Assembly: GCA_963785235.1 (NCBI GenBank)
Contig: CAWAUM010000003.1
Location: 96,001 to 160,000 of the forward strand
From: an uncultured delta proteobacterium
GTDB lineage: Bacteria; Desulfobacterota; Desulfomonilia; UBA1062
Length of the DNA stretch: 64,000 nucleotides
Reading direction: 5' to 3'
A model generated the notes under the pieces. The model was not told the origin of the DNA and ran no database searches. It was given only the letters and a program-made list of their open reading frames with translations. Within the stretch, counting starts at the first letter, position 1. Each line of letters begins with the position of its first letter. Below, one piece after another: positions 2,056 to 54,337 of the stretch. Both the position numbers and the translations under genes were made by a program.

Positions 2056-4168
2056 TTACGCACACTCCTTGATCACATCATGTGCCGACATAACCTTCAG
2101 AAAAGCTTGGACTACCTCAGGATCGAACTGCCTGCCGGCTTCTTTGCGGATCTCTCTGAGGACAACAGCCGCCTCCATGCCGGGACGGTACGGCCGGTCA
2201 GAGGTCATGGCGTCGTATGTATCCGCAACCGCCATTATGCGCGCTCCAAGGGAAATCATATGCCCAGCGAGCCTTCTCGGATAACCCTTGCCATCGAAAC
2301 GTTCATGGTGCTGCAAAACTATTGGGATCATTTCCGCATATGACGATATCGGCTCCAGGATACGGGCACCACTTTCCGGATGCTCCTGGATTATTGCATA
2401 TTCTTCATTGGTGAGCTTCCCGTTCTTGTCGAGTATAGCCCGCGGGGTGCTTACCTTTCCTATGTCATGGAGCATGCCTGCCTTATTCAATACATCAAGC
2501 TGGTGCTTGCCGAGCCCCATGGTCTCTCCGATCCTCAAGGCTATTGCAGCGACCCGCTCGGAATGTCCTGCAGTCCAGGGAGATTTCGCATCAACCACCC
2601 TTGCCAGGGCTGTCAAGGTACCCCAGTTGAGGGTCTTGAGCTCACTGATGAGATATGCATTGGATAAGGCCACTGCCACGCGGTCGGTTATCTGACGTGC
2701 CCTGACCTGATGATCCTTGTCTTTGAAGACATCGTCCCGTGCCGCCAGAAAGACAATCGCCATCATATGGGTATTTAAGGTTATCGGCATGACAAGAAAG
2801 GAGGCCATATCCTTATGCACCAGCGAAGAGAGGTATTTCGGGATATAACTGTCCCGGGCAGAGATCAGGCACTCGGATTTATTATAAAGAAAGACAAGAT
2901 CATCATTATTCAAAGAATGTATTTCCAAGTCACTTTTTACAGCATGTGAAGGGATAGCACGATAATGGGTTATCCATCTTTCATCCGTACTAAGATAACG
3001 GTAGCAGACACCTGCCGCATGGCACGGACACAGGTCGTCAATCCGGGTTATAAAGGTATCGATGATACTTTCAAAGTCAAACTCGGACAGGATTGCCCGG
3101 TCAATATCCGTCATGGTCTGCAATGTTTTGAACTGCTCGTCTATGCGGGTAATCATTGTATTGAAGGACCCTGCAAGGTTCTCGAACTCATCTCCGCTGT
3201 TTATGATCACCCTTGATTCAAAATCTCCCTGGGATATCTTGAGCGTCCCCTGCTGGAGCCGTTCCAGAGGAACGAGATATCTTCTGATCTGATTGGTGCT
3301 GATCAACACAATGACAACGAAAGCCAACAGGATAACAAGGATGAATGTTATCTTAAAACTTTTCACCGGACTGAAGACATCTGCCATGGGCTCGGTCATG
3401 GCAAGTGACCATAATGGCCCGCTGAACCTGCTTCCCAAAAAAACCGGTACGCTGCTGAGGATGTCGTCGCTTATCATCTGGCTGAAAATAATCTGATCCC
3501 CTAGCTTGCCGTCATTTATCCGCTGATGGAGTCGGCCTGTCTGTTCCTCTGGCAGTGTAGTGAAGATGACTCGACCTTTTTCAACAATGCTCACCCCGAC
3601 ATTACCAAAAGAATCCTCATGACTTTGTAAGATGCCAAGCAGGAAGTATGGCCTTATCTCTGCCAAAAATGTCAGCTCTTTTCCTGATTTCTCTTTTTTG
3701 AATTTATACATGAAGATCGAGGCCGAGGTCTGTGAGCGGCTGTGAGTAAATAACACGGTTTTCCCTGCGGCCAGTTCTCTTTTCTGCTTACTGCTTAAAG
3801 CAGGCCAGTCCTTTTTATCCCCTAAGAGGTCTGAAAGAAGAAATCCGTCCTGAGAGGCTACCGACACTGCCGAAAAGTATCGATCGAATCCGTACGACTG
3901 TGTCCGAAGGTCGGTGTTCCTTATCCGTCTCATAATAGGCTGAGATCAATTCAATCTCATCTTCTGCAATGACGCACCGCTCTATCATAGACATCCCCAG
4001 GGTTACTGCCTGGTGATGGAGGCGGTCCTGGGAGGACTGTACGAGCTGATGGGATACCTGGTAGAAGGTGATGAAAGAAAGGATCACTAAGGGGACAATG
4101 GCGCTGAAGATAAACAACAGAAAGATACGATACGCGAATTTGCTCTTGAATAGCTCAAAGGATATCAT
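2056..4168 (-). CDS. Membrane HAMP-GAF-HD-GYP c-di-GMP phosphodiesterase, one frameshift near 3930
   Basis: TM in 3815..4168 ORF; second TM, HAMP (GDEFENLAGSFN), GAF, HDIGK and HHERFDGKGYP in 2056..3933 ORF. Confidence 0.88.
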
Positions 4169-4179
4169 GGCGTGGAGTT

Positions 4180-4785
4180 TTAAATAATGTCTCTGGCTAT
4201 GCCGAGGTATGACCCGTTGAATGCCCTGATGATGTCATCTTGGCTTGGATTTGCCTGGATGGTGTCTTGGCTCTTGCCGTCCTTGCCGATGCTGAACAGG
4301 TCATAATCCGTATTTATGGGATGTACAGGCCCGTTTTTCCTGCAACCAGTGCACTTGTGTTTATTGTCATTTGCCATTATGAATTCATTATTTTGATACT
4401 GGTAAGCTCTATCCCAAGGATCTTTCAGGCCACCCCTGCCGATATCACCCAGCGAATCGGGGTAGCGGTTGTTCTCGGCATAAAACTTCTCAATCAGCAG
4501 CCCAATGCCGGTCATGTCCGCCACAGCCTGTGCGGCATCAGTTTTTTCCTTGTATCCTGTATACGCCGGGACGGCTATTCCTGAAACAATGGCGATAATA
4601 CAGACAACCAGCATCAACTCTATGAAGGTGACCCCGCGGTTTGAACAGGATATCCACGTCATCATACCGCGCCGGATCGATCTTGCCGCATTTTGCGAAA
4701 AGATCTGTTTTGACTTTAATTCTTTTATATTTTCAGTATGATATGAAGGCTTCATATTCATCCTCAATATATTATTGAACATCAA
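4180..4785 (-). CDS. GspG-like prepilin/pseudopilin (true start may be nearer 4662)
   Basis: RG|VTFIELMLVV prepilin cleavage motif with E+5, DPWDRAYQY, and YDLFSIGKDG GspG-like C-terminus. Confidence 0.8.
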   Translation of the reverse strand: MMFNNILRMNMKPSYHTENIKELKSKQIFSQNAARSIRRGMMTWISCSNRGVTFIELMLVVCIIAIVSGIAVPAYTGYKEKTDAAQAVADMTGIGLLIEKFYAENNRYPDSLGDIGRGGLKDPWDRAYQYQNNEFIMANDNKHKCTGCRKNGPVHPINTDYDLFSIGKDGKSQDTIQANPSQDDIIRAFNGSYLGIARDII

Positions 4786-7346: not shown

Positions 7347-7961
7347 TCAGGAAAACACCATGCCGGGAAAGAACCTTTTCATCTCGTCTAAGAACTGCTG
7401 TTTACCTGTATAGCAGATGGCATGCAGGCCTCTTGAACGGGCCCTTTCTACATGGCCTATGGTATCGTCGATAAAGAGTGTCTCGTCCGGCCTGAGACCC
7501 ATGACTGCAATGACGTCGGAAAAGATGCTCGGGTCGTTCTTGCTCTTGCCCAGATAGAAGCTGTTGAACACACGCTCGAACTCCTTGAAGAAATGCAATT
7601 TTGAATCAAGCTCATCAAGCCAGTTGGTCTGATCGCTCAGGATAGCCACGCGTACAGATGCCTCCTTCAACCTTTTTACCAGTACCATCATCCAGTCCCT
7701 CAGGATAAAGCGCTCCAGGATGATGGTCTTCAGCTCTTCATCACTGCTTGTAATCCCTGTTCGCGCCCTCAGTTGTTCCCATAAGGAGGCCTCGCTGCCA
7801 TGGCCGGTGAGGTACCCGCTTGAGAAGATCAGGCCCTGCACTGTATGAAAAAATTCATCCGCATCCAGAGAATTCACCGAAGCGATATGCATAATCCCGT
7901 TTCGGAACCCCTCTTCTGCAATCACCCCTCCAAAGTCGAACAATACGGCATTTATGTTCAT
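7347..7961 (-). CDS. HAD-superfamily phosphatase
   Basis: Motif I FDFGGVI, LSD, K, and FIDD motif IV. Confidence 0.9.
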   Translation of the reverse strand: MNINAVLFDFGGVIAEEGFRNGIMHIASVNSLDADEFFHTVQGLIFSSGYLTGHGSEASLWEQLRARTGITSSDEELKTIILERFILRDWMMVLVKRLKEASVRVAILSDQTNWLDELDSKLHFFKEFERVFNSFYLGKSKNDPSIFSDVIAVMGLRPDETLFIDDTIGHVERARSRGLHAICYTGKQQFLDEMKRFFPGMVFS

Positions 7962-7976
7962 CAGTCCCTCCTTCTG

Positions 7977-8936
7977 TTAGACCAGGAGCCCTAAGAAAAA
8001 GCCCCTGAAGATAAAGAGCACAGGCAGTATCCCTGCAAGAAATATAATGGAATTCCACACGAACAGATTGGATGCAAACCCTGCATCCAGATCGAACAGG
8101 ACGCATGATACCACTGAATAAATGGCGGCAGGCATGAATGACTGGATGAATATCACGGTCTCGATGGCAGGGTTAAGATGGAGTGCCTTAAGGATGAGGA
8201 GAGTTACTGCCGGCACAAGCAAAAATTTTATTGCTGCAAGGGCTGCATTCTCTTTTCCTGAACCAAAAAAGGCAGGCAACTCGAAATTGAGCCCCAGGGT
8301 AAAGTAGTACAGCGCCATGGATATGATGATGAAGATATCCACAGGGAATAAAATATGGGGTCTTTCAAATCCAAGGGCAAGGAAAACAAGCGATAGGACA
8401 ATGGCAAAAAGCGGCATGTTCTGGAGGCTCAGGAAATAGTCAAATACAGTTGCAAGGTCAAGGCCTTTTCCCGTTGATTGCCTGCGGGCATAGGGGAAGA
8501 TGACGAGAAAGACAAAGGGCATGAAATAGGAAAGAAAGAGAAACGCCAGCCCGAGCCCCTGTTCCCCTATAAGGAGGTAGCACAGAAAGGCCCCCATGGT
8601 AAATCCGTGGTTGGCCAGGGTTGAACTGATCAGAAAGGTTGCACCCTTTTTCTCAGAAAGGCTTAGCATGCCCTTGAATACCTTGCCGAAAAACATGCCC
8701 GACATCACCAGGAAGAACCCGGCCAGAGGTAGCCAGAAAAGCTCTTGGGTGAGGGCCAGCCCCCATGTGCTCCACAGGGCGATAATAGGCTCGATAATGA
8801 CCAGATTGACCCTGATGAGCTTCTTGGTAAAACCTGATAGATCGGGTATCCTGTGTAGGCTTTTTACCGCCATGCCTGAGGCAAAGGGGACAATGATCAG
8901 TATCTGGAAGAGAATGAATCTCGTCGATATGTCCAT
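7977..8936 (-). CDS. AEC (auxin efflux carrier)-family transporter
   Basis: About 10 TM helices, ANHGF and MPAA crossover motifs. Confidence 0.75.
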   Translation of the reverse strand: MDISTRFILFQILIIVPFASGMAVKSLHRIPDLSGFTKKLIRVNLVIIEPIIALWSTWGLALTQELFWLPLAGFFLVMSGMFFGKVFKGMLSLSEKKGATFLISSTLANHGFTMGAFLCYLLIGEQGLGLAFLFLSYFMPFVFLVIFPYARRQSTGKGLDLATVFDYFLSLQNMPLFAIVLSLVFLALGFERPHILFPVDIFIIISMALYYFTLGLNFELPAFFGSGKENAALAAIKFLLVPAVTLLILKALHLNPAIETVIFIQSFMPAAIYSVVSCVLFDLDAGFASNLFVWNSIIFLAGILPVLFIFRGFFLGLLV

Positions 8937-9212: not shown

Positions 9213-12155
9213 CTAAGGTATTGATACTGGTGGGCTAGGAAGTGTATCCTTAGTCTTATCAAGTTCAGACCTTACAGCCCGAGCAAGATCACTTAAGGCA
9301 TAGGGCTTACGAATATACGCACCCACACCCAGTTTAATGGCTTCCCTTACCCTGTCCGTCTCAGAGAAGCCACTGACGATGATGGCCTTCTGGTGACCCT
9401 GTACGGCAAGCATCTTCTTGTAGGTGTCCAAACCATCTATCCCGGTGTCCATAATCATGTCGAGAATAACAAGGTCTACTGCATTGAGTTTGATCAACTC
9501 CACGGCATCCTCACCGCTCATAACCGTATCCACATTGTAGCCGAGCTTTTTTAACAAACTTCTCGTTATTTCCCTTTGTTCCTCTGAATCATCCACCACA
9601 AGGATATGCTCCGTGCCTGAATAATCCTGGATCGACCCATTGTCAGCCTTCTCTTTGATAATGTGTCTGGTAACAGGGAAATAAAGGTCGAACCTTGTGC
9701 CCTCGCCTTCCTTGCTCTCCACATCGATGTAACCGTTGTGATCCTTGACCGTGGACCACACAACAGTCATTCCCAAGCCTGTACCGCTCCTGCCCATGAC
9801 CTTCTTTGAGAAGAATGGTTCAAAGATCTTTCTCAGGTCATCTTCTGAAATTCCAATACCGTTATCTGCAACCGACAGCACCGCATATTCTCCCTGGGAT
9901 ACCGTGTCATAGCCCTTGAGAGGCTTATCAAGATGCCTGTTGCCGGTGCTCACAGACACAGTTCCGCCCTTGTGCATAGCCTCGGCTGCATTCGAAACGA
10001 GGTTCATCAGGGTTTTGCCTAGGTGCACCTCTGAACCCAGTATATACTTGAGTTCATCATCAAGGCGTACATCAAAATTAACATGGGGGTGATACTCCTG
10101 GAGTTTCGAGAATTCAGGGCTTTCAAAATAGTCTCTCAATATTGCGTTGAGATCAACGACATTCGAGACATTGACCCCCCTGCGTGCAAGGGTGAGGAGG
10201 TCTTGAACCATTGCTGCAGCCTTGTCTCCGGACTTCTTGATGGTTTGTACCGCCTTCCTCATGGGGCTTTCCTCCGGGATTTCCATAAGGAGGAGTTCAG
10301 GATAGCTCGTGATACCACTTAAAATATTGTTCAGGTCATGGGCCACACCGCCGGCCAAGGATCCTATGGCCTCCATCTTCTGTGCCCTGATGAGCTGTTC
10401 CTCCAACTGTCTCTTCTCACGCTCGGCCTTTTTCCGGGCCGTGGTGTCATAGCCCACACAAAGGATCTCGGAGACATTGCCCTCTTTGTCGTAGATGGCC
10501 TTACTGCTCCAGTTTATCCATACTCGCTCTTTGCTTTTCAGGATATTCTCGCTCTCCATTGTATCATAACTTTCCGGGTTTGAGAGGAATACACTCATGG
10601 CAGAGGTCAAGTCCCTCCCGTTGAGATCTTTTTCCGGCACGATGAAGCCCAGGATGTTCCTGCCGAGCATCTCAGCTTCGTCATAGCCATAGAACTCCTT
10701 GGCATAACGGTTGACAAAGGTTACTTCACCCTTGGTATTGATCCTGAGGATGATACTGTTGGCACTCTCCACGAGCACACGGTATTTCTCCTCACTTGCC
10801 TGCATCATCTCAAAGGTGCGTGCATTATGAATGCTGATGGCGATCTGAGGGGCAATTCCCATGAGGAGATTGAGATCGCTCTGTTTGGGAGGGCCTATAG
10901 TCTTTGTATTATCGAGAGAGAGAACCCCCAGCGGCTCATCCTCATAGATAATCGGGACACAGATAAATGATCGGGCGCCTGATGTGCGGACAAGATCCTT
11001 GCTCCGCTGAGACAGGTTATCTATGATTTCATTCACATCATTCACAAGGAATGGCTTTTTCTGCCTGAAAGCCATGACGAATGGCCCCTTTGACCCGGGA
11101 TTGTCAAGATGAAGCTCAGTAGTTCTCAGTGATTCCAACTGCCCGGCCGTATACCCATATCCGGCTTTGATTTGAAGCCTTTTTCTTTCATGGTTCGCAA
11201 GGAGGATCATCCCCCTGTCATAGTCGAGGTGTTTCTTGAGGGTGACCATTGCAATATTTAAGAGCTCATCTATATCGAGTACGCTGGAGATTGCCTGGCC
11301 AAGCTCCTGTATCAGTTCTGCATCGCTGTATCTTCGGTTCGATTCAGCCATGAGCTGTTCCGCCATTTTGCCCTGATGCTCGATCTGCCGCCTGAGGTCC
11401 TGCTTCTCCTTAATCCCGATATAAGCTGAGAAGCCTAAAACCATCGAAAGCAATCCGAGACCGATGTCTGCTGTGTGAGTAGTGGATAGAAAAAATGAAC
11501 CGATGGCTGTGGATAGTATACTTAAGAGAAGAATGAGATTTCTCAATCGTTTAAGCTTGAGCGATAACGGCTCATTCCAGGAAATAAGATATTTACAGTA
11601 GTTTGCCCCTTTGTGAATGCATTCGTTATGCTCAACAATTGCATACTCTCCGGTAAAAGGCATGGCCAGGGCTTCCATTGATCCAAGACGGTTTTGGCAT
11701 TGATAGAGTTTTTCCTTTACCCCTGGATTCTGTTCGAAGACAGCCTCAACCTTGTTTGATGCAATTTTATTAATTGTGATCTTGGTTCCTCTTGTAAGCT
11801 TTGATCCGATCTTTCCCATGACTTCATAGGCTGTTGATGGTTCGATAAAACTGAAGATATACTGGCGGATTATGCCATAGGACGCAGATGTCGTGCCATA
11901 CCTGCCTGCATCACGTGCGATATTAGTATGATTGGTGAGTTTGTCTACAATCTCATGAAAACGGTCAGCCTGTTCCTGTGTATACCAATAACCGTCATCA
12001 TCTAACTGAGACTTCGTAATACCAGAGTAATCAAGGATATGGTCAATATTCAGTTCAGGATAATTCTTTCGGACATACTCCAGGTATGTCTTTATAATTT
12101 TTATATGATAGAGGTGCTTACCCTGTTGCCCAGCATCATTCATGCATCGATCCAT
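9213..12155 (-). CDS. Hybrid sensor kinase: V4R/H-NOX-like N-domain, 2 TM, GAF, PAS, HisKA, HATPase, REC
   Basis: VAHDLNN H-box, DNGIG and GTGLG boxes, receiver LDMIM; N-terminal CQNRLG...[12 protein letters not shown]. Confidence 0.9.
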
Positions 12156-12349
12156 TATTCCGTATTAAAAGAAGCCCCGATCGAGAAGGCTTCCTTCTCC
12201 ACAAAAACTTCAGGTTCGAATTTCGAAATTACATCAATCAAACCGTACTTTTATAATCGGCAATATGAAAAGGGAACATGACTTTATTCTGAATGCTTCA
12301 AGAGATCATGAATGCACGGTTTGCGGACATATTGACGGTTACTTAACTC

Positions 12350-14488
12350 TCACTTTTTGAATATTCTTGCGAGAAGGATCTTCAGGAAAAGTCGTGCAGG
12401 GCGGATTTTTGCCTGCGTCTTCAAATGTTCTGAATAATCATCACTAGCCCGGGCACTGAGAACCCAAAGGTTGTATTTTTTACTGTATGGTATGGCCTGC
12501 TCGTCGGCATATTGGTATGGGTAAACGAGAACAGGGACATTGGATGTCCTATAGAGCCCTGAAAACATCCCGACAGAGGCCTTCAGTATGCTCCATGGAA
12601 GATCCGTCTTATCGGTTACTATGATCTTGATACTGTTGAGAAGTTCCGAAAGGTTTACTCCCATGTCCGACTCGTCTACGATCATATACGCCTTTGTCTT
12701 TCCATTATATTTCAAGACATGCGCCCTATATTTTCGTTTGAGTCCATATTTGCTGTAGAGGTCACTGATCGATCCTGTAGAATCAATTCGGCCATCGAGA
12801 CAGAAAGCATCGACCATAAGGCCGCCGGAGAGCTCTTTATAACTTGATCGCAGTTCGGCGATGTCTTTGGTGGAAGTCTCACTCAGAGTCCAATTCTCCG
12901 GCAGTGCTTTCTTGGTTGGCGTCAGCGGATGTGTGATATAAGCAAAACAATCCATTGAGCAACCCTGTGGATTTTTGTATTCTCTGCAGAATCCTCCGAA
13001 AAAGTGATCCGGGAATTTATTATCAGGCCGGAAGTAGAAGATCATGTAGTCCATGCCGATTGAAGGCATTCGATAAAAGCCATCAAAGTAGTTGAGTATA
13101 TGATTCAGTACAAACAGGCCGGTCCTTTTTGTTCCCATTGGTTTAGCCGCGAGGTGGTGAATCATCCAGGTCCGTTCGTAGGACTTGATTATGGACACAT
13201 GGCCATATATTGCGTCGTTCTCCCGGTAAGTAAAGTTGGCAAATATTTCAGGACTGCTGTGATAGAGCTTTTCGTAGGTTTTTTTATAATCTTCTTTATA
13301 CTGGCTGAAGCAAGAATACTTGTTGGGATAAATAAAACCTGACTCGAAGAAAAATCCCCAGAGGAGGTCCATGTTGACATCACGGGAGACATTTGCATGC
13401 CTGTCAATGGCGTTGCTGTACATGTCAAACAGCTGGTTATACGTTACTACGTCTGTGTCGTTAATTGCAAAGCCGTACTTAACTCTGTTTTTTTTCTGCG
13501 GGCTGGCATGCACGATTTGCGCAGAACATTTCATCTTGAACAGGCCGGGACGGGTAATCGTGACCGTGTCGATTATCATACCCGGGATCAGAAGAGAAGT
13601 ATCGGATTTTGCCTCCACGGAGAAACCGGAGGTTGTTATGTCAACCACATCAAAAGTGACCCGCTTTAAAGTGAACGGGTGATTGAAGATCACCTTGGGG
13701 CCTGGAGAAAAGATCATCCTGGGATTTCGGAATTTTTTCTGTTTGTAACGCTGCTGAGGAATGTTGAGAGGATTTACTACAAGTACGTTATTTCTCTCTT
13801 CGACACGGATAAGATTACCAAGGCCCGAGAAGATACGATCATCCCCTCTTGTGAGATGAATGGTGAATTCTTGTTCAGAACGTAGAGATGATATGACCTC
13901 AGCAATATTGTCCTTCAGGGAGATACGCAGCCCGGAAGGATTAAACTCCTCAAGCGATCCCTCTATTTCTCTATCCCCTTGCTTCAGCACAGCATCCACA
14001 AGATGACAGTAAAACCTCTTTGCATGACGTGCGTTGTATATTGTCCCGGATTTCCTGAGCTTCATCGTGATGGACTTTGAAGATACCCGGACAGGGTCCA
14101 CATTCATGATAATTATTGATTGTCCATTATCTATTACAAGCCCTTTAATCAAAAAGTTATCAAAACTCAGGTGTGATCCTTCGGGAAGTGTACAGATAAG
14201 CTCGTTAGCAATACAAGGACCCGGGAGCACCCAGAAGAGCAACTCCTCCTTGGTAAGAGGGTGGACCATCAGTACGAAAATCTGCTCGTCATTAAAATTG
14301 TGAAAATTAATGGTATTGATAATTTGTTTCTGGTCGATCCTTGATGAAGAGAACACGGACCGCTTCAGATTCGATCTCTTGAATTGTACGGCCTGTGGAT
14401 ATATTTTGGATAAAATCCCTGTTACATCCTTGATATCAGTAATGTTATGAACATCATTGTCCATACAATTCCCCCTGTACATGTTCAA
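12350..14488 (-). CDS. PilZ-domain protein with C-terminal acyltransferase (GNAT)-like region
   Basis: RHAKR...EFNPSG and FRNPR...DITTSG PilZ-type motifs. The GNAT-like call for the C-terminal half (WMIHHLAA, YFRPDNKFP) is by family recognition only. Confidence 0.65.
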   Translation of the reverse strand: MNMYRGNCMDNDVHNITDIKDVTGILSKIYPQAVQFKRSNLKRSVFSSSRIDQKQIINTINFHNFNDEQIFVLMVHPLTKEELLFWVLPGPCIANELICTLPEGSHLSFDNFLIKGLVIDNGQSIIIMNVDPVRVSSKSITMKLRKSGTIYNARHAKRFYCHLVDAVLKQGDREIEGSLEEFNPSGLRISLKDNIAEVISSLRSEQEFTIHLTRGDDRIFSGLGNLIRVEERNNVLVVNPLNIPQQRYKQKKFRNPRMIFSPGPKVIFNHPFTLKRVTFDVVDITTSGFSVEAKSDTSLLIPGMIIDTVTITRPGLFKMKCSAQIVHASPQKKNRVKYGFAINDTDVVTYNQLFDMYSNAIDRHANVSRDVNMDLLWGFFFESGFIYPNKYSCFSQYKEDYKKTYEKLYHSSPEIFANFTYRENDAIYGHVSIIKSYERTWMIHHLAAKPMGTKRTGLFVLNHILNYFDGFYRMPSIGMDYMIFYFRPDNKFPDHFFGGFCREYKNPQGCSMDCFAYITHPLTPTKKALPENWTLSETSTKDIAELRSSYKELSGGLMVDAFCLDGRIDSTGSISDLYSKYGLKRKYRAHVLKYNGKTKAYMIVDESDMGVNLSELLNSIKIIVTDKTDLPWSILKASVGMFSGLYRTSNVPVLVYPYQYADEQAIPYSKKYNLWVLSARASDDYSEHLKTQAKIRPARLFLKILLARIFKK

Positions 14489-14705
14489 AATAAATCATCA
14501 ACTTTATCAAAAAGTAAAAGTGTTTCCTCTTAACTTGATACTATAAAACTAATAAAATATCTATGATTATCTCCACAAGTGAACATTCAAAAGAATAAAA
14601 AGAGACTAATTAATATAATGTATTCACGTTTTATTATATTTGAAATATCCATCTCAGTTATTTCTTACACAAGGGGATATTCCCCCTTAGCATTGTATAC
14701 TTTTT

Positions 14706-15521
14706 TTATTTTACCGGCTTCCTGCCTGTGCAGATTATAAGCGGCGTGTAGGTAAAACGCCTCGGATCGTGGAAGAAGTCATTAAAGTCTTTAAAAAAAC
14801 CTTCATAACCACCCGGATAGTCATCAAAGAGGGTTTTGGCCTTTACAGATGCCATCTCTACTTTCTTTATCCAATTAAAATCATCGCTTGACTGAAGATC
14901 TCCATAAATAAGGTGGTGGGGTATCAGGCTGACCTCGATATCTCGGAACCCGAGGTCATACAGGTACGTGTACATTTTCCTACCGACAAAGGCATCAAAA
15001 TTATATTTTGTCATCATTTTCTGCACTAATTTCTGAAGTATTGACTCCATCTCAGGCTTTATTGGGTAATGACTCAGGCAATTATAATCAAGGTCCAGGA
15101 GACACAGCCGGCCTAGTGGCTTCAGGCTTTCTGCAGCATTCCTGATAATATCAAGAGATCCCTCCAGGTAATACTCAAGTACAAAACGGATCCAGATAAA
15201 ATCAAAGGAACCCAGTTCGTCAAGGGGCTTCATAAGATCCATGCATCGAAACTCGATGCCGTCTTTGTTTCCGTAATGCTTATCTGCAAAATCAACCCTG
15301 TCCTGTGCGAAGTCTATACCTACTGCGGAACCGCCGGGCCGAACCATCTCATGAATAATGGAAGTTGTTTTTCCTGATCCGCAACCTGCATCAAGTACCC
15401 TTGCCCCGGGACCTATACCGCAAAGCTCGACCTGCCTTCGCACCGCATCGGGGTCTGTCTTGACGTCAAGCCTGAGGGCTTCCTCGGAATTCTCCATGAG
15501 ATATGCATCAGAACCGGACAT
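14706..15521 (-). CDS. Class I SAM-dependent methyltransferase
   Basis: VLDAGCGSG motif I, GID, FDFIWIRFVLEY and LKPLG. Confidence 0.9.
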   Translation of the reverse strand: MSGSDAYLMENSEEALRLDVKTDPDAVRRQVELCGIGPGARVLDAGCGSGKTTSIIHEMVRPGGSAVGIDFAQDRVDFADKHYGNKDGIEFRCMDLMKPLDELGSFDFIWIRFVLEYYLEGSLDIIRNAAESLKPLGRLCLLDLDYNCLSHYPIKPEMESILQKLVQKMMTKYNFDAFVGRKMYTYLYDLGFRDIEVSLIPHHLIYGDLQSSDDFNWIKKVEMASVKAKTLFDDYPGGYEGFFKDFNDFFHDPRRFTYTPLIICTGRKPVK

Positions 15522-20235: not shown

Positions 20236-23200
20236 TTATCGATCATCCATGATTCCCTTGATTTTCTTAGATAATTCCAACATGGTGAACGGTTTCTGGA
20301 TGAATCCCTTGCAACCACTCTGCATGATCTCCTTTGCCTGACCATTGAGGCTGTACCCGCTCGACAGAAGTACACATACTTCCGGATTAATCCGTCTCAG
20401 ATCATCAAAAGTCTCTTTCCCGCTGTAATCGGGCATGATCATGTCGAGGATAACAAGATCAATATCACCCCGGCCTTTTTCATAAATCTGTATACCTTGT
20501 CTCCCGCCAGCCGCAATTATCACGTTATACCCGAGGCTTTCAACCATCTTAGAACCGATATCAAGGATCATTTCCTCGTCGTCGATGAGCAGTACGGTTC
20601 CCTGACCTGTCAGGATATCATCCTTGGATTTGTCTATATCCTCAATCTCTTTGTCCGAAGCTGGGAGATAGATTATAAAGGATGATCCAATTCCTTTTTC
20701 ACTCTCCACTGTGATAAGCCCACCATGATTCTTGACTATACCGTATACAGAGGCCAGACCGAGACCAGTCCCACGGCCACGCTCCTTTGTAGTGAAGAAT
20801 GGCTCGAAAATCCGTGCCTTGGTCGCCTCGTCCATTCCAGTGCCAGTATCGGTAACGATAACCTTTACAAAATTACCCGGTTTAATACCGTAGGGGCCTA
20901 CATCAATCTCATCAAGTTGGACATTTTCAACTGAGAGATAAAGGTCACCACCGCCTGTCATGGCCTGCCAGGCATTCACATACAGATTGAGGAGCACCTG
21001 CTCCATCTGTCCCCGGTCTACCTCCACTGTCCAAAGTCCTTCCTGGGCCTTTTGATGTATGCGAATCTCCTTCTTGGTCCTTCCGAACATCTCCGAGCTT
21101 TTCAGTATAAACTCGCCAAGATTGGTGGGTTTAACCTCATATTTTCCACCCCTGGCAAATCCGAGCAACTGCTTCGTGAGGTCAGAGCCGCGTTGCACAT
21201 ATTCCTCAACATTTTTCAGTCGCTCACGTAGCGGATTACCCTCATCCATTCTCATGAGGGCTAATGATACATTTCCAAGAATCCCTGTGAGGAGGTTGTT
21301 GAAGTCATGAGCAATTCCACCTGCCAGTGTCCCTATGGACTCCATCTTCTGGGCCTGGTTGAGCTGGTCTTCCAGCTTTTTATTCTCCTCTTCCGCTTTT
21401 TTTCGCTCTGTGATGTCCGTTACCATGGTTAGGAGATAATCTTCATGTGCGATTTGTATCTTTGTTGAGTTAAATAACCCGTATCCTATCTCTCCTTCTT
21501 TTATTCTCACCTGTAACTCAAGATTCTCAACACGCCCTTTCTCTGTAAGCTCCTTCAGCACGAGAGCTCTCTGCTCCGAATTAATGAAACCTACCCCTGT
21601 CGATGTATTCCCGATAACTGTATCTCTATCCTGGCCGATCCATTCCAGGAATGTCTCACTAACGTCAATATATCGACCTTCCTTGATCGTGCTTATTGCC
21701 ATGGGAATTGCATTTTGCAGGAAAGCCCTGGCGAATTTATCTACGTTCTTCTTGAGCGTCTCCTCTGCCTGCTTCCTCTCTGTGATGTCGTTGATGATTA
21801 CACCAAGAAGGGGCGATGTATCCGAGCGTTCGATACGGAACTTCCGCGTTTCGAAGACATGATCATTCCCTGCTTTGTCTCTCCATGTTTCCTCGTATTG
21901 TATATACCCCTCGGCAAGGGCCTTGTTGTCATTCTCTATCATGGAGACTGCGATGTCTGGCGGGAATGTATTTTCCGGGGTTTTCCCCAGCCACTCATCG
22001 GCGGGAAAGATATCTCCAAAAGGGCGGTTAAAATAGACAGGCCGCAGGTTGTGGTCTTTTATGATTACGAGACTGGGAGAATAATCCATGAAGGCCCGGA
22101 AGCTGGTATCGCTCTCCCTGAGGGCTTCCTCCGCCTGCTTTCGTGCAGAGATATCCCGAGTTACACCCATGATGCCTGTGGGCTCGCCATTCTCATTGTA
22201 GACGATGTTCATTGTAGCCTCTGTCCAGACAGTAGAACCATCTTTACGGATCATTTCGAGTTCAGATTTTAATGACCATTCAGGTCCATGGCGTTGTCCA
22301 CTGAATTCAAGCGTGAATTCCCTGTCGAGAGCCTCCTTGACCTTTTGATAGGATTCCGGTGCCAGGATTTGGTCGAGGCTCTGTTCCAATGCCTCTTCCA
22401 CGGTGTATCCTCTCAGCTGCAGTACAGACGGAGTCACATAGGTGTAGCCTAGGTTCAGGTCAAAGATCCAGATAACATCACGGGCATTTTCAGTAATAAA
22501 ACGATAGCGTTCTTCACTCTTCCGGAGAGCATCTTCGGCCTTCTTTCTTTCGGTGATGTCTCGGGTTATTCCTTTGAAACCAATTGGGTTACCCTGAGAA
22601 TCCCTGCGGAGAGAGACGGACGCTTCCACATTAATCTCATTGCCATCCTTATGTCTGAGTTTCCAATCAATCCCCTTTATTGTCTCTCCGGTGACATAGA
22701 CTTGGTTGAAAGCCTTGAACACCTTTTCAATGTTCTCCTTATCCATGGCTATTATGTAGCTTTTACCCATAATCTCATCTTTCGTATAACCATAGGTCCT
22801 TGTAATTGATGGGTTGAAAAATGTGAATTTCCCTTCCAGGTCCACCTCGTAATAAGCCTCCTCCATATCCTCAAGAATACCCCGATAGCGTTCCTCACTC
22901 CTGTGCAGAGCCTCTTCAGCCAACTTGCGTTCCGCAATCTCACTCTGTAGGGAGATATTTGTGCTCTGCAGAAGTTCGCTCTCGTGTGAGAGTTTATTGT
23001 GTAAGTCACGTTCAAGGAAAAATGAGGTGTTCAGCCTCTTTAAGAGTAAACTCACCGGTAAGCTTGCAACCAAGGAAATGACGGAGAGACTCACTACGAA
23101 AATAATCCAGTTAGTTGCTGGTTCCATGTATAACGGTGCCCACGATTGCAAGTTAGGGCCGATGAACACATACAGGACTATAAGAATTGCTGCATTGATC

Positions 23201-23598
23201 ACAGTAGCCGTTATTGCTGCCTGTACACCAAATAAGAGTGCTGCAGTAACTGAACAGAGAACAAGCCACCCTGGACGTGCATAGAACGGTCCCAGGGAAA
23301 TGAAAAACATGATAACCATCATATAACCAGCGAATATGAATATCACCCCGCGCAGCGCTGAATCACGCATGGCAAATAATATCAGCAGGAGGATGAATAT
23401 TCCTATTTGAAAAGCTATAACCCCAAAATTTTTCCCGGCAATATAAGTGGAAATAGATACAATAAGCGCAATGGGCAGGAGAATGAGAGATAATAACAAC
23501 ATGAGGTCAAAGTAGTAATTTCTCCAACCGGCAAGGTCTGAGAACTCAGCCAATGCTTTTTTATGCCTGAGTCTCTCCAACCATTTATCGATATTCAT
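20236..23598 (-). CDS. Multi-TM, multi-PAS hybrid histidine kinase
   Basis: About 6 TM helices, four PAS/PAC repeats (DITERK), IAHDFNN, GTGLGL, receiver LDMIMP. Confidence 0.93.
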   Translation of the reverse strand: MNIDKWLERLRHKKALAEFSDLAGWRNYYFDLMLLLSLILLPIALIVSISTYIAGKNFGVIAFQIGIFILLLILFAMRDSALRGVIFIFAGYMMVIMFFISLGPFYARPGWLVLCSVTAALLFGVQAAITATVINAAILIVLYVFIGPNLQSWAPLYMEPATNWIIFVVSLSVISLVASLPVSLLLKRLNTSFFLERDLHNKLSHESELLQSTNISLQSEIAERKLAEEALHRSEERYRGILEDMEEAYYEVDLEGKFTFFNPSITRTYGYTKDEIMGKSYIIAMDKENIEKVFKAFNQVYVTGETIKGIDWKLRHKDGNEINVEASVSLRRDSQGNPIGFKGITRDITERKKAEDALRKSEERYRFITENARDVIWIFDLNLGYTYVTPSVLQLRGYTVEEALEQSLDQILAPESYQKVKEALDREFTLEFSGQRHGPEWSLKSELEMIRKDGSTVWTEATMNIVYNENGEPTGIMGVTRDISARKQAEEALRESDTSFRAFMDYSPSLVIIKDHNLRPVYFNRPFGDIFPADEWLGKTPENTFPPDIAVSMIENDNKALAEGYIQYEETWRDKAGNDHVFETRKFRIERSDTSPLLGVIINDITERKQAEETLKKNVDKFARAFLQNAIPMAISTIKEGRYIDVSETFLEWIGQDRDTVIGNTSTGVGFINSEQRALVLKELTEKGRVENLELQVRIKEGEIGYGLFNSTKIQIAHEDYLLTMVTDITERKKAEEENKKLEDQLNQAQKMESIGTLAGGIAHDFNNLLTGILGNVSLALMRMDEGNPLRERLKNVEEYVQRGSDLTKQLLGFARGGKYEVKPTNLGEFILKSSEMFGRTKKEIRIHQKAQEGLWTVEVDRGQMEQVLLNLYVNAWQAMTGGGDLYLSVENVQLDEIDVGPYGIKPGNFVKVIVTDTGTGMDEATKARIFEPFFTTKERGRGTGLGLASVYGIVKNHGGLITVESEKGIGSSFIIYLPASDKEIEDIDKSKDDILTGQGTVLLIDDEEMILDIGSKMVESLGYNVIIAAGGRQGIQIYEKGRGDIDLVILDMIMPDYSGKETFDDLRRINPEVCVLLSSGYSLNGQAKEIMQSGCKGFIQKPFTMLELSKKIKGIMDDR

Positions 23599-24049: not shown

Positions 24050-26845
24050 TTATCCCAGTTGCTCCACGCACCTGGGGCATATCTCCGGATGGGCCTGGCT
24101 CTTGCCGATACCTTCACGGTAGTGCCAGCATCTCGGGCATTTTTTCCCTGCAGCCTTTTCCGCCTCGATGCGGAGCATGGTGAAGTTCTCGCTCTCCATA
24201 TACGGGCCGTCACCCGTGGCAACCTCTACCCCAGAGCAGATGAAGACATCTTCCAGGAAAGGCTCCACGTCTTTCAGGAAGGCCAAGGTATCTCCCTGCG
24301 CCACAAGCTTCACCTTGGCATCCAGGGGGTGGCCGATGACCTTGTCCCTGCGGGCCCCTTCGAGAACCTTGGACACCTCCTGTTTGAGCTGCAGGATGCG
24401 TTCCCACTTTCCCTTCAGTGCCTCATCCTTGAGCGCCGTATCCGAAACAGGCAGGCTGCTCAGGTGCACGCTGTCCTCCTTGCCGGAAAAGGCAGGGATG
24501 AAGTCCCAGATCTCTTCGGCCGTGAAGGACAAGACCGGGGCGATGAGCCTGGTGAGCGCCACCAGGATCCTGAACAAGGCGCTCTGGGCCGACTTGCGGC
24601 CCTTGGAGCCCGGCCTTGTACACATAGAGCCTGTCCTTGAGCACATCGAGATAGAAGGCGCTCATGTCCACCACACAGAAGTTATGCACCTGCTGGTAGA
24701 TGACATAGGGTTCGAAATCCTCATAGGCCTTGCGTACCTTCTCGATAAGATCCTGTGTTGCATGCAGTGCATAGCGGTCTATCTCGAGCATGTCATCGTA
24801 GGCAACCATGTCCGTGTCAGGGTTGAAGCCGGAAAGGTTGCCCAGCAGGAAGCGTGCCGTATTCCTGATACGCCGGTAGGTCTCCACCAGGCGCTCGATG
24901 ATCTCTTTGGAGATCCTGATGTCGTTCGTGTAGTCCTGGGCGCTCACCCACAGCCGCAGGATCTCGGCGCCGTACTTGTCGATAATCTCCTGCGGGCGCG
25001 ATGGTGTTGCCCAGCGACTTGGACATCTTGCGGCCCTCGCCGTCCACCACGAACCCATGGGTGAGTACGGTCTTGTACGGCGCGGTGCCTCTTGTGCCCA
25101 CGGATGTCAGCAGGGTGCTGTGGAACCACCCCCTGTGCTGGTCAGAACCTTCAAGGTACATGTCCACAGGTACACCCAGCCTCTCGTCGTTCTCGCACAC
25201 CGCGGCATAGCTCACGCCCGAGTCGAACCAGACATCCGCAATGTCCTCTTCCTTGACCAGGTTGGTGCCGGAACACTTTGCGCACGTGGTGCCTTCGGGC
25301 AGCAGGTCTTTCTCAGGATCGGGTGAACCATGCATCCGCACCCTCCTTCTCGAAGATATCCGCCACATGCTGGGCCACTTTCTCGGATGCCAGCACCTCG
25401 TCGCAGTCCTTGCAATAAAACACCGGTATGGGCACTCCCCAGGCGCGCTGCCTGGAGATGCACCAGTCAGGCCTGTTTTCCACCATGCCGTAGATGCGCT
25501 CCCTTCCCCACGACGGAATCCACCGCACGTTCTGGATCGCCTGCAGGGCCTTCTTGCGCAGGTCATCATGCTCCAGGGAGATGAACCACTGGTTGGTGGA
25601 GCGGAAGATGATGGCGCTCTTGCACCGCCAGCAGTAGGGGTATGAGTGGCTGTATTTGTCAACCGAGAGCAGGGCGCCTTCCCTCTTCAGGGCCTTGTTC
25701 ACGTCGTCATTTGCGTCAAAGACGAATTTGCCGGCAAACTCTTCGACCTCTTTGGTGAACTTCCCTTCGTTGTCCACAGGTGCATAGATATCCAGGCCAT
25801 AGGCCTTGCCGATCTCATAGTCCTCTTCACCGTGGCCCGGCGCGATGTGCACCAGACCCGAACCGGCATCCAGCGTGACAAAGGGGGCCAGGATAAGCAA
25901 TGATTCGCGGTCGTAAAGGGGGTGGCGTCGCCTTGAGGCGGTCCATGATCTTGCCCTCGAACACGGCCAGGGTCTCATAGTCCTTCACCCCGATCTGGTC
26001 CATGACTGCATACACCAGGTCCTTTGCCATGATGAGCACGCCGTACTCCTCCGTCTTGACGGCCGATATTCCAGGTCCGGGTGGAAGGCCACTGCCAGGT
26101 TGGCCGGGATGGTCCATGGGGTGGTGGTCCAGATCACCACATAGGTATTGTCTTTATAATCCTTGAGCTCCGGAACTACCGTCGGAGACATCGGATATCA
26201 TCTTGAACCGCACGAAGATGGCCGGCGTTGTCTGATCGTTGTACTCCACCTCTGCCTCGGCCAGGGCGGTCTGGCAGGTGGCGCACCAGTACACGGGCTT
26301 GCGCGCCTTATAAAGCGACCCCTTGCCGATGAACTTGCCCAGCTCCCGGACAATGGTGGCCTCATACTTATACGACATGGTCACATACGGGTCCTCCCAC
26401 AGGCCCAGCACACCTAAACGCTTGAACTCGTCCGCGCTGGATGTCCAGGAACTTCCCGGCATACTCACGGCACTTCTTGCGTATCTCGGCCTTGCTCATA
26501 CCGGCGATCTCGTCGCCCGATGATATCTCCACCTGGTGCTCGATGGGCAGGCCGTGGCAATCCCAGCCCGGCATGTAGAACGTGTCGTACCCCATCATGA
26601 ACATGGACTTTACGATAATGTCCTTCAGATATCTTATTAAGGGCCGTGCCAAGATGAATATGCCCGTTGGCATATGGCGGTCCGTCATGGAGAATGAACT
26701 TGTCCCTGCCTGCAGAGGCCGCGATAATCTTATGATAAAGGTTTTCCTTTTCCCAGCGCTCCAGGATCTCGGGCTCCTTCTGCACAAGCTTGGCCTTCAT
26801 GGGGAATTCGGTGTTCGGCAGACACAATGTATCCTTGTAATCCAT
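24050..26845 (-). CDS. ileS: Isoleucine-tRNA ligase, type 1; multiple apparent frameshifts
   Basis: [60 protein letters not shown]-terminal CPRC..CPRC. Confidence 0.95.
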
Positions 26846-27011
26846 TCCTTCCTCCTTGTTTTTCAAACGCATTCGAATCTATCCCACATGGCAAATGATT
26901 GTCAATGGTCTCAGGGCTCGAGGTAATTGGTATGAGCAGGAAAAAACACACCGGACTTCATTAGTTGTATTTATGCACGGATATTGAGTTTTTAAAGAGC
27001 AAAAACCTTGA

Positions 27012-50004: not shown

Positions 50005-54337
<4,333 letters not shown>

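Follow-up and report, generated by a model that had tools for sequence, protein, structure and literature searches.

On the minus strand of the 64,000-nt window analysed here (positions 96,001 to 160,000 of contig CAWAUM010000003.1, assembly GCA_963785235.1, from an uncultured delta proteobacterium), three co-oriented genes at 9213..15521 form a conserved unit, hereafter the cassette. They encode a class I S-adenosylmethionine (SAM) methyltransferase (MT), a protein in which PilZ domains precede a tandem GNAT fold (PilZ-GNAT), and a membrane-anchored hybrid histidine kinase with an H-NOX-fold sensor domain (the receptor). We consider, with a little better than even confidence, that the receptor binds a small derivative of an N-acyl acid, made jointly by a cyclic di-GMP (c-di-GMP)-modulated acyltransferase and a tailoring enzyme. 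The first-pass annotation, made from the window alone, had read the genes as a system that makes and perceives a diffusible lipid-like signal. Overall that reading is partly supported, and its three computational predictions held: a GNAT fold in the C-terminal half of the PilZ protein, co-location of the three families across genomes, and a sensor domain swapped between outputs. The genomic case is strong and exceeds the earlier reading; the chemistry is a prediction.

Conservation of the cassette across genomes

A genome scan confirmed at least 541 relatives among 600 pattern matches. The best 80 GTDB loci, from about 74-75 genomes, were analysed (L020 and L042 belong to one assembly), their neighbour genes being located by a six-frame profile scan. 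By deposited name, 29 loci are from Syntrophales, 9 from Desulfobacterales and 3 from Desulfomonilia, many others bearing vague or doubtful labels; the cassette is common in genomes of Syntrophales (Smithella, Syntrophaceae), Desulfobacterales and Desulfomonilia. A receptor gene was present in 58 of the 80 loci; where at least 1 kb of downstream sequence was available (64 loci), it followed the GNAT gene in 52. The two open reading frames (ORFs) overlapped or abutted in 29 of 56 pairs. The 50 locus receptors long enough to be scanned ended in a kinase (23), an HD-GYP domain (22) or a class III cyclase (4), and one was cut off. In a quick LG+G4 tree built from 74 GNAT halves, with the window included and 6 short loci omitted, the receptor output changes six times. 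Since varied outputs stand beside the same GNAT, it is the input domain, not the output, that is tied to it.

It is scarcely credible that the three genes stand together by chance, or as an island acquired recently, and share no function. Their guanine plus cytosine content (GC) is slightly low (0.470, 0.439 and 0.457, for a window mean of 0.516), and the 80 loci are the closest of at least 541 relatives, which would both fit such a view; against it, the linkage persists through different flanks, two MT arrangements, three outputs and loci down to 34-45% identity. The cassette is not a recent island, because neighbouring genes are similarly low in GC (0.454-0.498) and the order of the flanking genes is kept in several relatives. 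The AT-richness remarked on earlier is thus correct with respect to the window mean but carries little weight, the neighbours being nearly as low. When the window was set against a near relative (L002/L003), synonymous changes outnumbered non-synonymous ones in every stretch examined, at 37:23 in the MT, 37:13 in the C-terminus of the GNAT and 72:33 in the N-terminal part of the receptor.

An interchangeable third enzyme

The MT gene of the window (14706..15521, minus strand) codes for 271 aa, matched by Pfam Methyltransf_25/11/31 above cut-off, and is a candidate tailoring enzyme. The 27 rows of its family alignment are 51-86% identical to it. PDB relatives are 3mgg, phosphoethanolamine N-methyltransferases and a juvenile-hormone-acid O-methyltransferase; among the 25 NCBIfam matches shown, no MT model reached its cut-off. 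One search for longer forms gave a single 650-aa protein with MT domains only, weak evidence against fusions. An MT was present in 33 of the 80 loci, in two arrangements: upstream and on the same strand in 11, downstream and convergent in 22.

The third position of the cassette is swappable, a new finding beyond the first-pass annotation. An enolase-superfamily enzyme occurred in 15 of the 80 loci, never together with an MT. Among the 27 fully assessable cassettes (those with a receptor and no less than 2.5 kb of sequence on each side), 16 had an MT, 11 an enolase, none both and none neither; for each of the 13 receptor loci showing no MT or enolase, the sequence stops within 1.6 kb on one of the sides. 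Neither enzyme was found beside the 10 assessable GNAT copies that lack a receptor. On the GNAT tree the third enzyme changes four times; that the enolase-linked GNATs arose only once was rejected (p-AU 8e-35, 45 rows). In L064 and L071, an enolase gene and a WbuX-like PP-loop gene occupy the very slot held by the MT in L034, L039, L062 and L079. The Fisher p value for the locus counts (8e-8) disregards kinship and is not usable.

Two types of enolase, about 29% identical to each other, were distinguished. The Smithella type (10 loci) lies upstream, has an intact KxK motif and is in most cases fused to an alpha/beta hydrolase whose nucleophile position is Cys, or Gly in two cases; the second type (5 loci) lies downstream and is missing the second Lys of KxK. 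For either type the nearest solved relatives are dipeptide epimerases; N-acylamino acid racemases come lower, for one type only. Both types are below every NCBIfam cut-off. Extra genes encode PP-loop proteins (WbuX-like in L064 and L071, TtcA-like in L004 and L005) and, in 7 loci, a B12 radical-SAM enzyme. The chemistry shared by the third enzymes may well lie at or next to a carboxylate, which would fit an N-acyl amino acid or a short peptide.

Some loci are unusual. In L028 (1750-11728), a B12 radical-SAM gene lies between the GNAT and receptor genes, and a second one, PhpK-like, beside the MT. In the genome that holds L020 and L042 there are two full cassettes: the enolase-hydrolase belongs to one, an MT and a B12 radical-SAM enzyme to the other. 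The MT of L005 (8097-8934) is split over two frames; in L020 (3730-5472) and L025 (8659-9879) the enolase-hydrolase fusion is shorter or interrupted. Error or decay could account for both.

The receptor and its sensor domain

The receptor of the window (9213..12155, minus strand, 980 aa) is ordered H-NOX-fold–transmembrane hairpin–GAF–PAS–HisKA–HATPase–REC. Pfam recognises GAF (294-443), PAS (456-572), HisKA, HATPase and REC; the HisKA His (H606, in the H-box AHDLNN) and the REC Asp (D899) are in place, as expected of a hybrid kinase. The N-terminal domain (aa ~14-197, 11565..12116), which has no Pfam assignment, had been described as V4R- or H-NOX-like. The second term was the better one: the AlphaFold2 (AF2) model (pLDDT 88.6) superposes on a whole H-NOX domain (4u99: Z 15.7, rmsd 3.3, 178 aligned, TM-score 0.70), and the top Foldseek matches are all H-NOX proteins (TM-score ~0.6-0.7). 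VirS follows (8rcw: Z 12.9, rmsd 4.0, 179 aligned), while the V4R sensors PoxR and DmpR match more poorly (Z 8.9, rmsd 4.1, 140 aligned). Pfam V4R was nevertheless matched by 50 of 54 family members at E<=1 (best 2e-7), the window itself giving 0.083, below the cut-off.

The four Zn ligands of the S. oneidensis H-NOX are C139, H161, C164 and C172, according to the part of the source available (PMC7108781). The last three align to H176, C179 and C187 of the receptor in a profile alignment, and C139 corresponds to C153 by spacing. The Cys3His site of the Shewanella-type H-NOX is thereby kept as residues (C153, H176 and C179 each in 54/54 rows, C187 in 51/54), and we predict that the domain is probably Zn-stabilised. 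G84 and G158 are invariant; polar residues conserved outside the Zn site are D53, Q60, E148, Q152, R156 and E161. The proximal His is given in the same partly available source as absolutely conserved over 598 H-NOX sequences (PMC7108781), but no conserved counterpart was found here: at positions 97-125, where the site was placed by spacing and not by superposition, His occurs in at most 5 of the 54 rows. Because of this the sensor domain is probably heme-less. A gas-sensing heme protein with an unusual mode of heme binding, the enzymes being its effectors, is accordingly very unlikely, even though every top fold match is an H-NOX protein and His residues are conserved elsewhere in the domain (H56 in 41/54, H67 in 33/54, H181 in 54/54).

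The sensor domain is followed by a two-helix transmembrane hairpin (11412..11537) with hardly any outside loop, its hydropathy peaks being at residues 207-225 and 230-248; the transmembrane-GAF-PAS order read earlier from the sequence is correct. Over 53 receptors (window included), the same short stretch gave two peaks in 31 and one merged peak in 22. Because such a short hairpin lies between them, the domain at the N-terminus and GAF should both be on the cytoplasmic side. In the databases at least 910 receptor proteins were found; the best 120 matches had cyclase (56), kinase (35), HD-GYP (19) or cyclase plus kinase (1) outputs, and 9 had none or were truncated. The HD-GYP motifs are intact in 21 of the 22 HD-GYP receptors of the loci, the other one being truncated, and REC–HD-GYP genes come after 4 kinase-type cassettes. 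In L032 (6170-7483), a gene for a REC–PAS–GGDEF diguanylate cyclase lies directly upstream of an HD-GYP-type cassette.

The Zn ligands also lend themselves to an opposite direction of flow, which we hold to be unlikely. The H-NOX-fold domain would sense oxidation via its Cys3His Zn site, or bind an outside cue, and act through c-di-GMP or cyclic AMP (cAMP); the second messenger would switch PilZ-GNAT and the MT, whose product would be a membrane aminolipid or an envelope modification instead of a receptor ligand. In keeping with this, all four ligands of the S. oneidensis protein map to the receptor, the H-NOX of V. cholerae, when free of heme, responds to oxidation of Cys as far as the available text goes (PMC7108781), the hosts are anaerobic lineages, 22 of the 50 outputs are HD-GYP, and receptor-less GNAT copies remain conserved. 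However, PilZ is not fed directly by kinase or cyclase outputs, a general redox sensor need not remain coupled to one enzyme pair, none of the 10 assessable receptor-less copies has a third enzyme beside it, and a specific ligand may be what the polar residues conserved outside the Zn site are for.

The PilZ-GNAT protein

The central gene (12350..14488, minus strand) is a 712-aa ORF opening with TTG and encodes a YcgR-N-like barrel, two PilZ domains and a tandem GNAT, together a candidate c-di-GMP-modulated acyltransferase. The real start is probably the ATG at residue 10 (~14461), giving ~703 aa, because a purine-rich ribosome-binding site precedes it and this length equals that of the homologues. 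Residue numbers below are those of the 712-aa ORF; numbers in the model and the alignment run one lower. We found 334 homologues; the GNAT half gave 1120 clusters at 50% identity. The AF2 model (pLDDT 89.9, pTM 0.84), built on 104 aligned rows, namely the window and 103 of the 120 homologues listed, contains three beta-barrels and two GNAT lobes. The two PilZ motif sets reported earlier are at the positions then given, but the barrels number three, a YcgR-N-like one being present at aa ~41-152 (14033..14368; 5y6h, Z 8.1, rmsd 3.4, 103 aligned).

Both PilZ domains have the PilZ fold. Domain 1 (aa ~151-242, 13763..14038; 8u0i, Z 9.2, rmsd 2.4, 84 aligned) has an intact R154-x-x-x-R158, both Arg being found in 104/104 rows and in 112/124 and 115/124 distant representatives, respectively. 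Its second motif (E181-F-N183-P-S-G186 in the window) is loose over the 104 rows (D 72, E 30; S 54, N 34, T 12; G 65, A 34). Domain 2 (aa ~251-360, 13409..13738; 4xrn, Z 12.1, rmsd 1.9, 99 aligned; Pfam PilZ E 7e-6) has F253-R254-N-P-R257 in place of the canonical RxxxR, the spacing being one residue short, with both Arg invariant (104/104). It has the [D/N]hSxxG motif as D283-I-T285-T-S-G288, with Thr for Ser in the window (D in 96/104 rows, G288 in 104/104, Ser in 128/142 distant rows).

The C-terminal half (aa ~363-692, 12413..13402), without a Pfam assignment, does have the GNAT fold that had been suspected, in the AF2 model and by fold searches, though as two lobes over ~330 aa and not as a single domain. 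Foldseek ranked at the top the tandem GNATs VipF, clavulanate Orf14, the GlcN acetyltransferase, Eis and NMT, along with YcgR-type PilZ proteins; a histidine acetyltransferase (9emp) gave Z 12.4 (rmsd 4.7, 264 aligned). Such matches to the model settle the fold, not the substrate. A solved-structure sequence search with the PilZ-GNAT profile yielded 3 matches only, all non-significant, no NCBIfam model matched the protein, and the GNAT and receptor profiles were unrelated to each other. FeeM, LuxI and FemABX are not among the listed rows of the fold searches, which excludes nothing, as the GNAT half was not folded alone.

Distant conservation was followed in the 148 representatives listed of the 1120 matches (25-45% identity). 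Lobe 1 has a conserved FFxxGFxYPxKY segment and a His cluster (H430, H444, H445): H445 was present in 148/148, H430 in 143/147, and a His at position 446 in 105/148, which suggests a live His-centred site. The usual coenzyme A (CoA) pyrophosphate loop of GNATs is Q/RxxGxG/A. All that is kept of it is G457 (71/74 rows, 140/148 distant representatives), and the acyl donor may be other than acetyl-CoA. Three genomes hold a full cassette plus a receptor-less paralogue; L006, L007, L009, L014-L017, L024 and L065 make up a clade of such paralogues (L015 and L024 end at a contig edge). Among the 12 receptor-less copies, H444N and Y672H were each found in 7, and their substrate has perhaps changed. 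Two homologues (P0314, P0358) have PilZ-GNAT fused behind NERD–Ser/Thr kinase modules, and the N-terminus of P0364 is similar-looking but has no Pfam match. The clusters given by ESM Atlas were mostly unnamed; some of them, from Acidobacteriota and 344-373 aa long, are maybe PilZ-less forms.

The fold neighbours of the tandem GNAT include protein acyltransferases, and a purely protein-level module has to be weighed on that account: PilZ-GNAT, controlled by c-di-GMP, would bind or acylate the cytoplasmic domain of the receptor or some other protein, the MT would likewise methylate a protein, and no small signal would be made. We think this improbable. Receptor domain and enzyme would both be cytoplasmic; their genes overlap or abut as often as cited above, as is frequent for subunits; two homologues are fused to kinase modules; and the substrate of PixB, a PilZ-acetyltransferase protein, is not known in the part of the report available (PMC8316039). 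Distances of the GNAT and of the receptor N-terminal domain correlate (rho 0.73), which common ancestry explains too. On the other side, replacement of the MT by enolases whose solved relatives act on small acids or dipeptides fits such a module poorly, and the fold of the N-terminal domain is a cavity-type, small-ligand fold.

Proposed mechanism

The reading that we prefer is that of a small product bound by the receptor; small-molecule chemistry is favoured because the third enzyme is swappable. The tandem GNAT, to judge from its modelled fold, would transfer an acyl group onto a small acid that bears an amine, most probably an amino acid or a short peptide, and c-di-GMP at the PilZ pair, for which the folds and the conserved Arg argue, would modulate the transfer. 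A third enzyme would tailor the product. The SAM methyltransferase of the window would most simply cap the carboxylate, giving a methyl ester; in other lineages this part would fall to an epimerase-like enolase-superfamily enzyme, sometimes with a hydrolase, an amidotransferase-type PP-loop protein or a B12 radical-SAM enzyme. PilZ-fused N-acyl amino acid synthases produce N-acyltyrosine (PMC4897644, available in part), and VirS, which has the sensor's fold, holds its ligand within an enclosed hydrophobic cavity (PMC13234193, likewise). By analogy with VirS, the product would most likely bind in the cavity of the H-NOX-fold domain, itself probably heme-less and Zn-stabilised; this would switch the kinase, HD-GYP or cyclase output. 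An HD-GYP-output receptor would remove c-di-GMP and so feed back on the synthase: HD-GYP receptors, and the REC–HD-GYP genes behind 4 kinase versions, would close the loop onto the PilZ pair.

Several observations weigh against this scheme. Neither PilZ domain of the window has both canonical motifs intact. No FeeM- or LuxI-type Pfam family was among the 21 families matched at E<=1 by the 74 members, and the GNAT fold neighbours mix protein acyltransferases (NMT, Eis, VipF) with small-molecule ones. The 12 of 64 GNAT copies lacking an adjacent receptor have kept the conserved residues. MT relatives include N- besides O-methyltransferases, and simple epimerisation by the five-member enolase type is doubtful, given its KxK motif. 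The mutual exclusion of MT and enolase holds in 4 of 4 independent pairs, a number with which the sign test (p 0.125) cannot reach significance, and an MT absent beside a cassette could sit elsewhere in the genome. Lastly, no convergent GNAT or receptor residues tracking MT versus enolase were found across the four lineages; this counts because a changed ligand might demand them.

The predicted location of the receptor bears on how far the product would travel. A cytoplasmic receptor needs a membrane-permeant product, and a methyl ester would pass membranes and reach it. Because of that location, cell-to-cell signalling by the predicted molecule is a possible but doubtful part of the scheme; that the molecule is an intracellular signal we regard as rather unlikely. 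The fullest version of the scheme would be an undescribed quorum-sensing-like chemistry of syntrophic and sulfate-reducing Desulfobacterota: a c-di-GMP-gated tandem-GNAT synthase making an N-acylated amino acid or peptide, lineage-specific dialects (methyl ester, epimer, amide) that arise from interchangeable tailoring enzymes, a heme-less H-NOX receptor for the lipid signal, phosphorelay, c-di-GMP or cAMP as outputs, and feedback. Taken jointly, these elements make a tentative proposal, less likely to be true than not.

Context of the cassette in the window

The three ORFs are intact and uninterrupted, with the boundaries first assigned to them. Pfam covers the MT, one PilZ domain and the GAF-PAS-HisKA-HATPase-REC part of the kinase. 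Rfam found 5 tRNAs only in the window and no riboswitch. Promoter-like sites were at chance level (13, for 14.1 expected); terminator-like sites numbered 10 (5.4 +/- 2.1 expected), with zero within the gaps separating the three cassette genes. No conserved element was found in the MT-GNAT gap across 10 loci, plasmid records gave no match, and no response regulator cognate to the kinase adjoins it in the window.

After the kinase come genes for a membrane transporter, matched by Pfam Mem_trans, and for a HAD hydrolase (7347-8936, minus strand), which recur in 5 and 6 related loci, respectively; the transporter could be an exporter or mere lineage synteny. Elsewhere on the minus strand are a second hybrid kinase (20236-23598; MASE11–4xPAS–HisKA–HATPase–REC), for which no link with the cassette was seen, and a HAMP–GAF–HD-GYP protein (2056-4785) whose N-terminus is apparently split (3815-4168) and which has a pilin-like N-methylation gene ahead of it. 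An isoleucyl-tRNA-synthetase-like gene (24050-26872, minus strand) is in about six frame-shifted pieces and rpoC (50005-54337, minus strand) in two; these are probably assembly indel errors, which leave the cassette genes unaffected.

Significance and comparison with known systems

Syntrophales, Desulfobacterales and Desulfomonilia take part in syntrophic breakdown in digesters and sediments. A narrow literature search, judged by its listings, turned up no signal synthase from these groups. If the preferred reading is true, a synthase, a tailoring enzyme and a receptor can be named for a new signal, a heme-less H-NOX domain gains a small-molecule ligand, and c-di-GMP becomes linked with signal production. 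Even under the rival readings, two large unannotated families are defined, the GNAT half and the receptor, with the cluster and protein counts given above. In the literature searched, which scarcely covers subscription papers, we found neither a description of the cassette nor papers joining V4R or H-NOX with GNAT, PilZ or acyltransferases; bioRxiv 10.1101/814665, available in part, may list this PilZN type.

As anticipated, the order PilZ-PilZ-GNAT is that of Myxococcus xanthus PixB, in which two PilZ domains lie ahead of a GNAT acetyltransferase and which binds c-di-GMP despite imperfect second motifs. The likeness does not extend to the GNAT itself, tandem here: PixB is described, in the available part of the report, with one acetyltransferase domain and no extra barrel, acting on motility through Frz, and no H-NOX-fold receptor or MT partner is mentioned there, the comparison being by description only (PMC8316039). 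The NAS–PilZ proteins Nas343 and Nas354 similarly join a GNAT-fold acyltransferase to a PilZ-type domain, with an N-acyl amino acid as product and c-di-GMP control proposed. They differ, as far as the partial text goes, by a single NAS domain (residues 1-200) N-terminal to PilZ, a catalytic Glu and no biosynthetic operon (PMC4897644), whereas the GNAT described here is tandem, C-terminal and His-rich, and a receptor gene adjoins it. The catalytic Glu of FeeM-type synthases is FeeM Glu95. Synthases of the FeeM/LuxI type are single GNAT-fold domains; the predicted model here has two lobes.

The bacterial H-NOX/HnoK proteins and soluble guanylate cyclase have, as given in the portion available, the same fold, Zn ligands and glycine positions, and kinase, c-di-GMP hydrolase or cyclase outputs (PMC7108781). 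In contrast, the receptor has no conserved proximal His, is fused in cis to a transmembrane hairpin and GAF, and has biosynthetic enzymes as partners. The AraC N-terminal domains of VirS and CdpR and the V4R sensors (DmpR, MopR, PoxR) are of the same fold family, with small and hydrophobic ligands (VirS, in the accessible part of PMC13234193; phenols for V4R, per PDB titles). They belong to transcription factors, whereas the sensor described here is membrane-anchored with enzymatic outputs. Stieleriacine and NAME are acylated, methylated amino acids such as we predict, and NAS genes stand together with a methyltransferase in the stieleriacine cluster; the methylation of stieleriacine, however, is on the tyrosine ring, the NAME synthase genes are reported as unidentified, and nothing connects either compound with the cassette.

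The cassette is not shown to belong to any of these systems, because its GNAT is tandem and its receptor departs from H-NOX proteins at the heme-binding His. In its manner of working it would come closest to synthase-receptor pairs such as Ralstonia PhcB/PhcS, where an MT makes a fatty-acid methyl ester and a histidine kinase senses it. The available parts of those reports mention no GNAT or PilZ partner, and the MT is replaceable here, the comparison again being by description only (PMC11960443, PMC8578825). It would share with PixB and Nas354 the idea of joining PilZ and GNAT.

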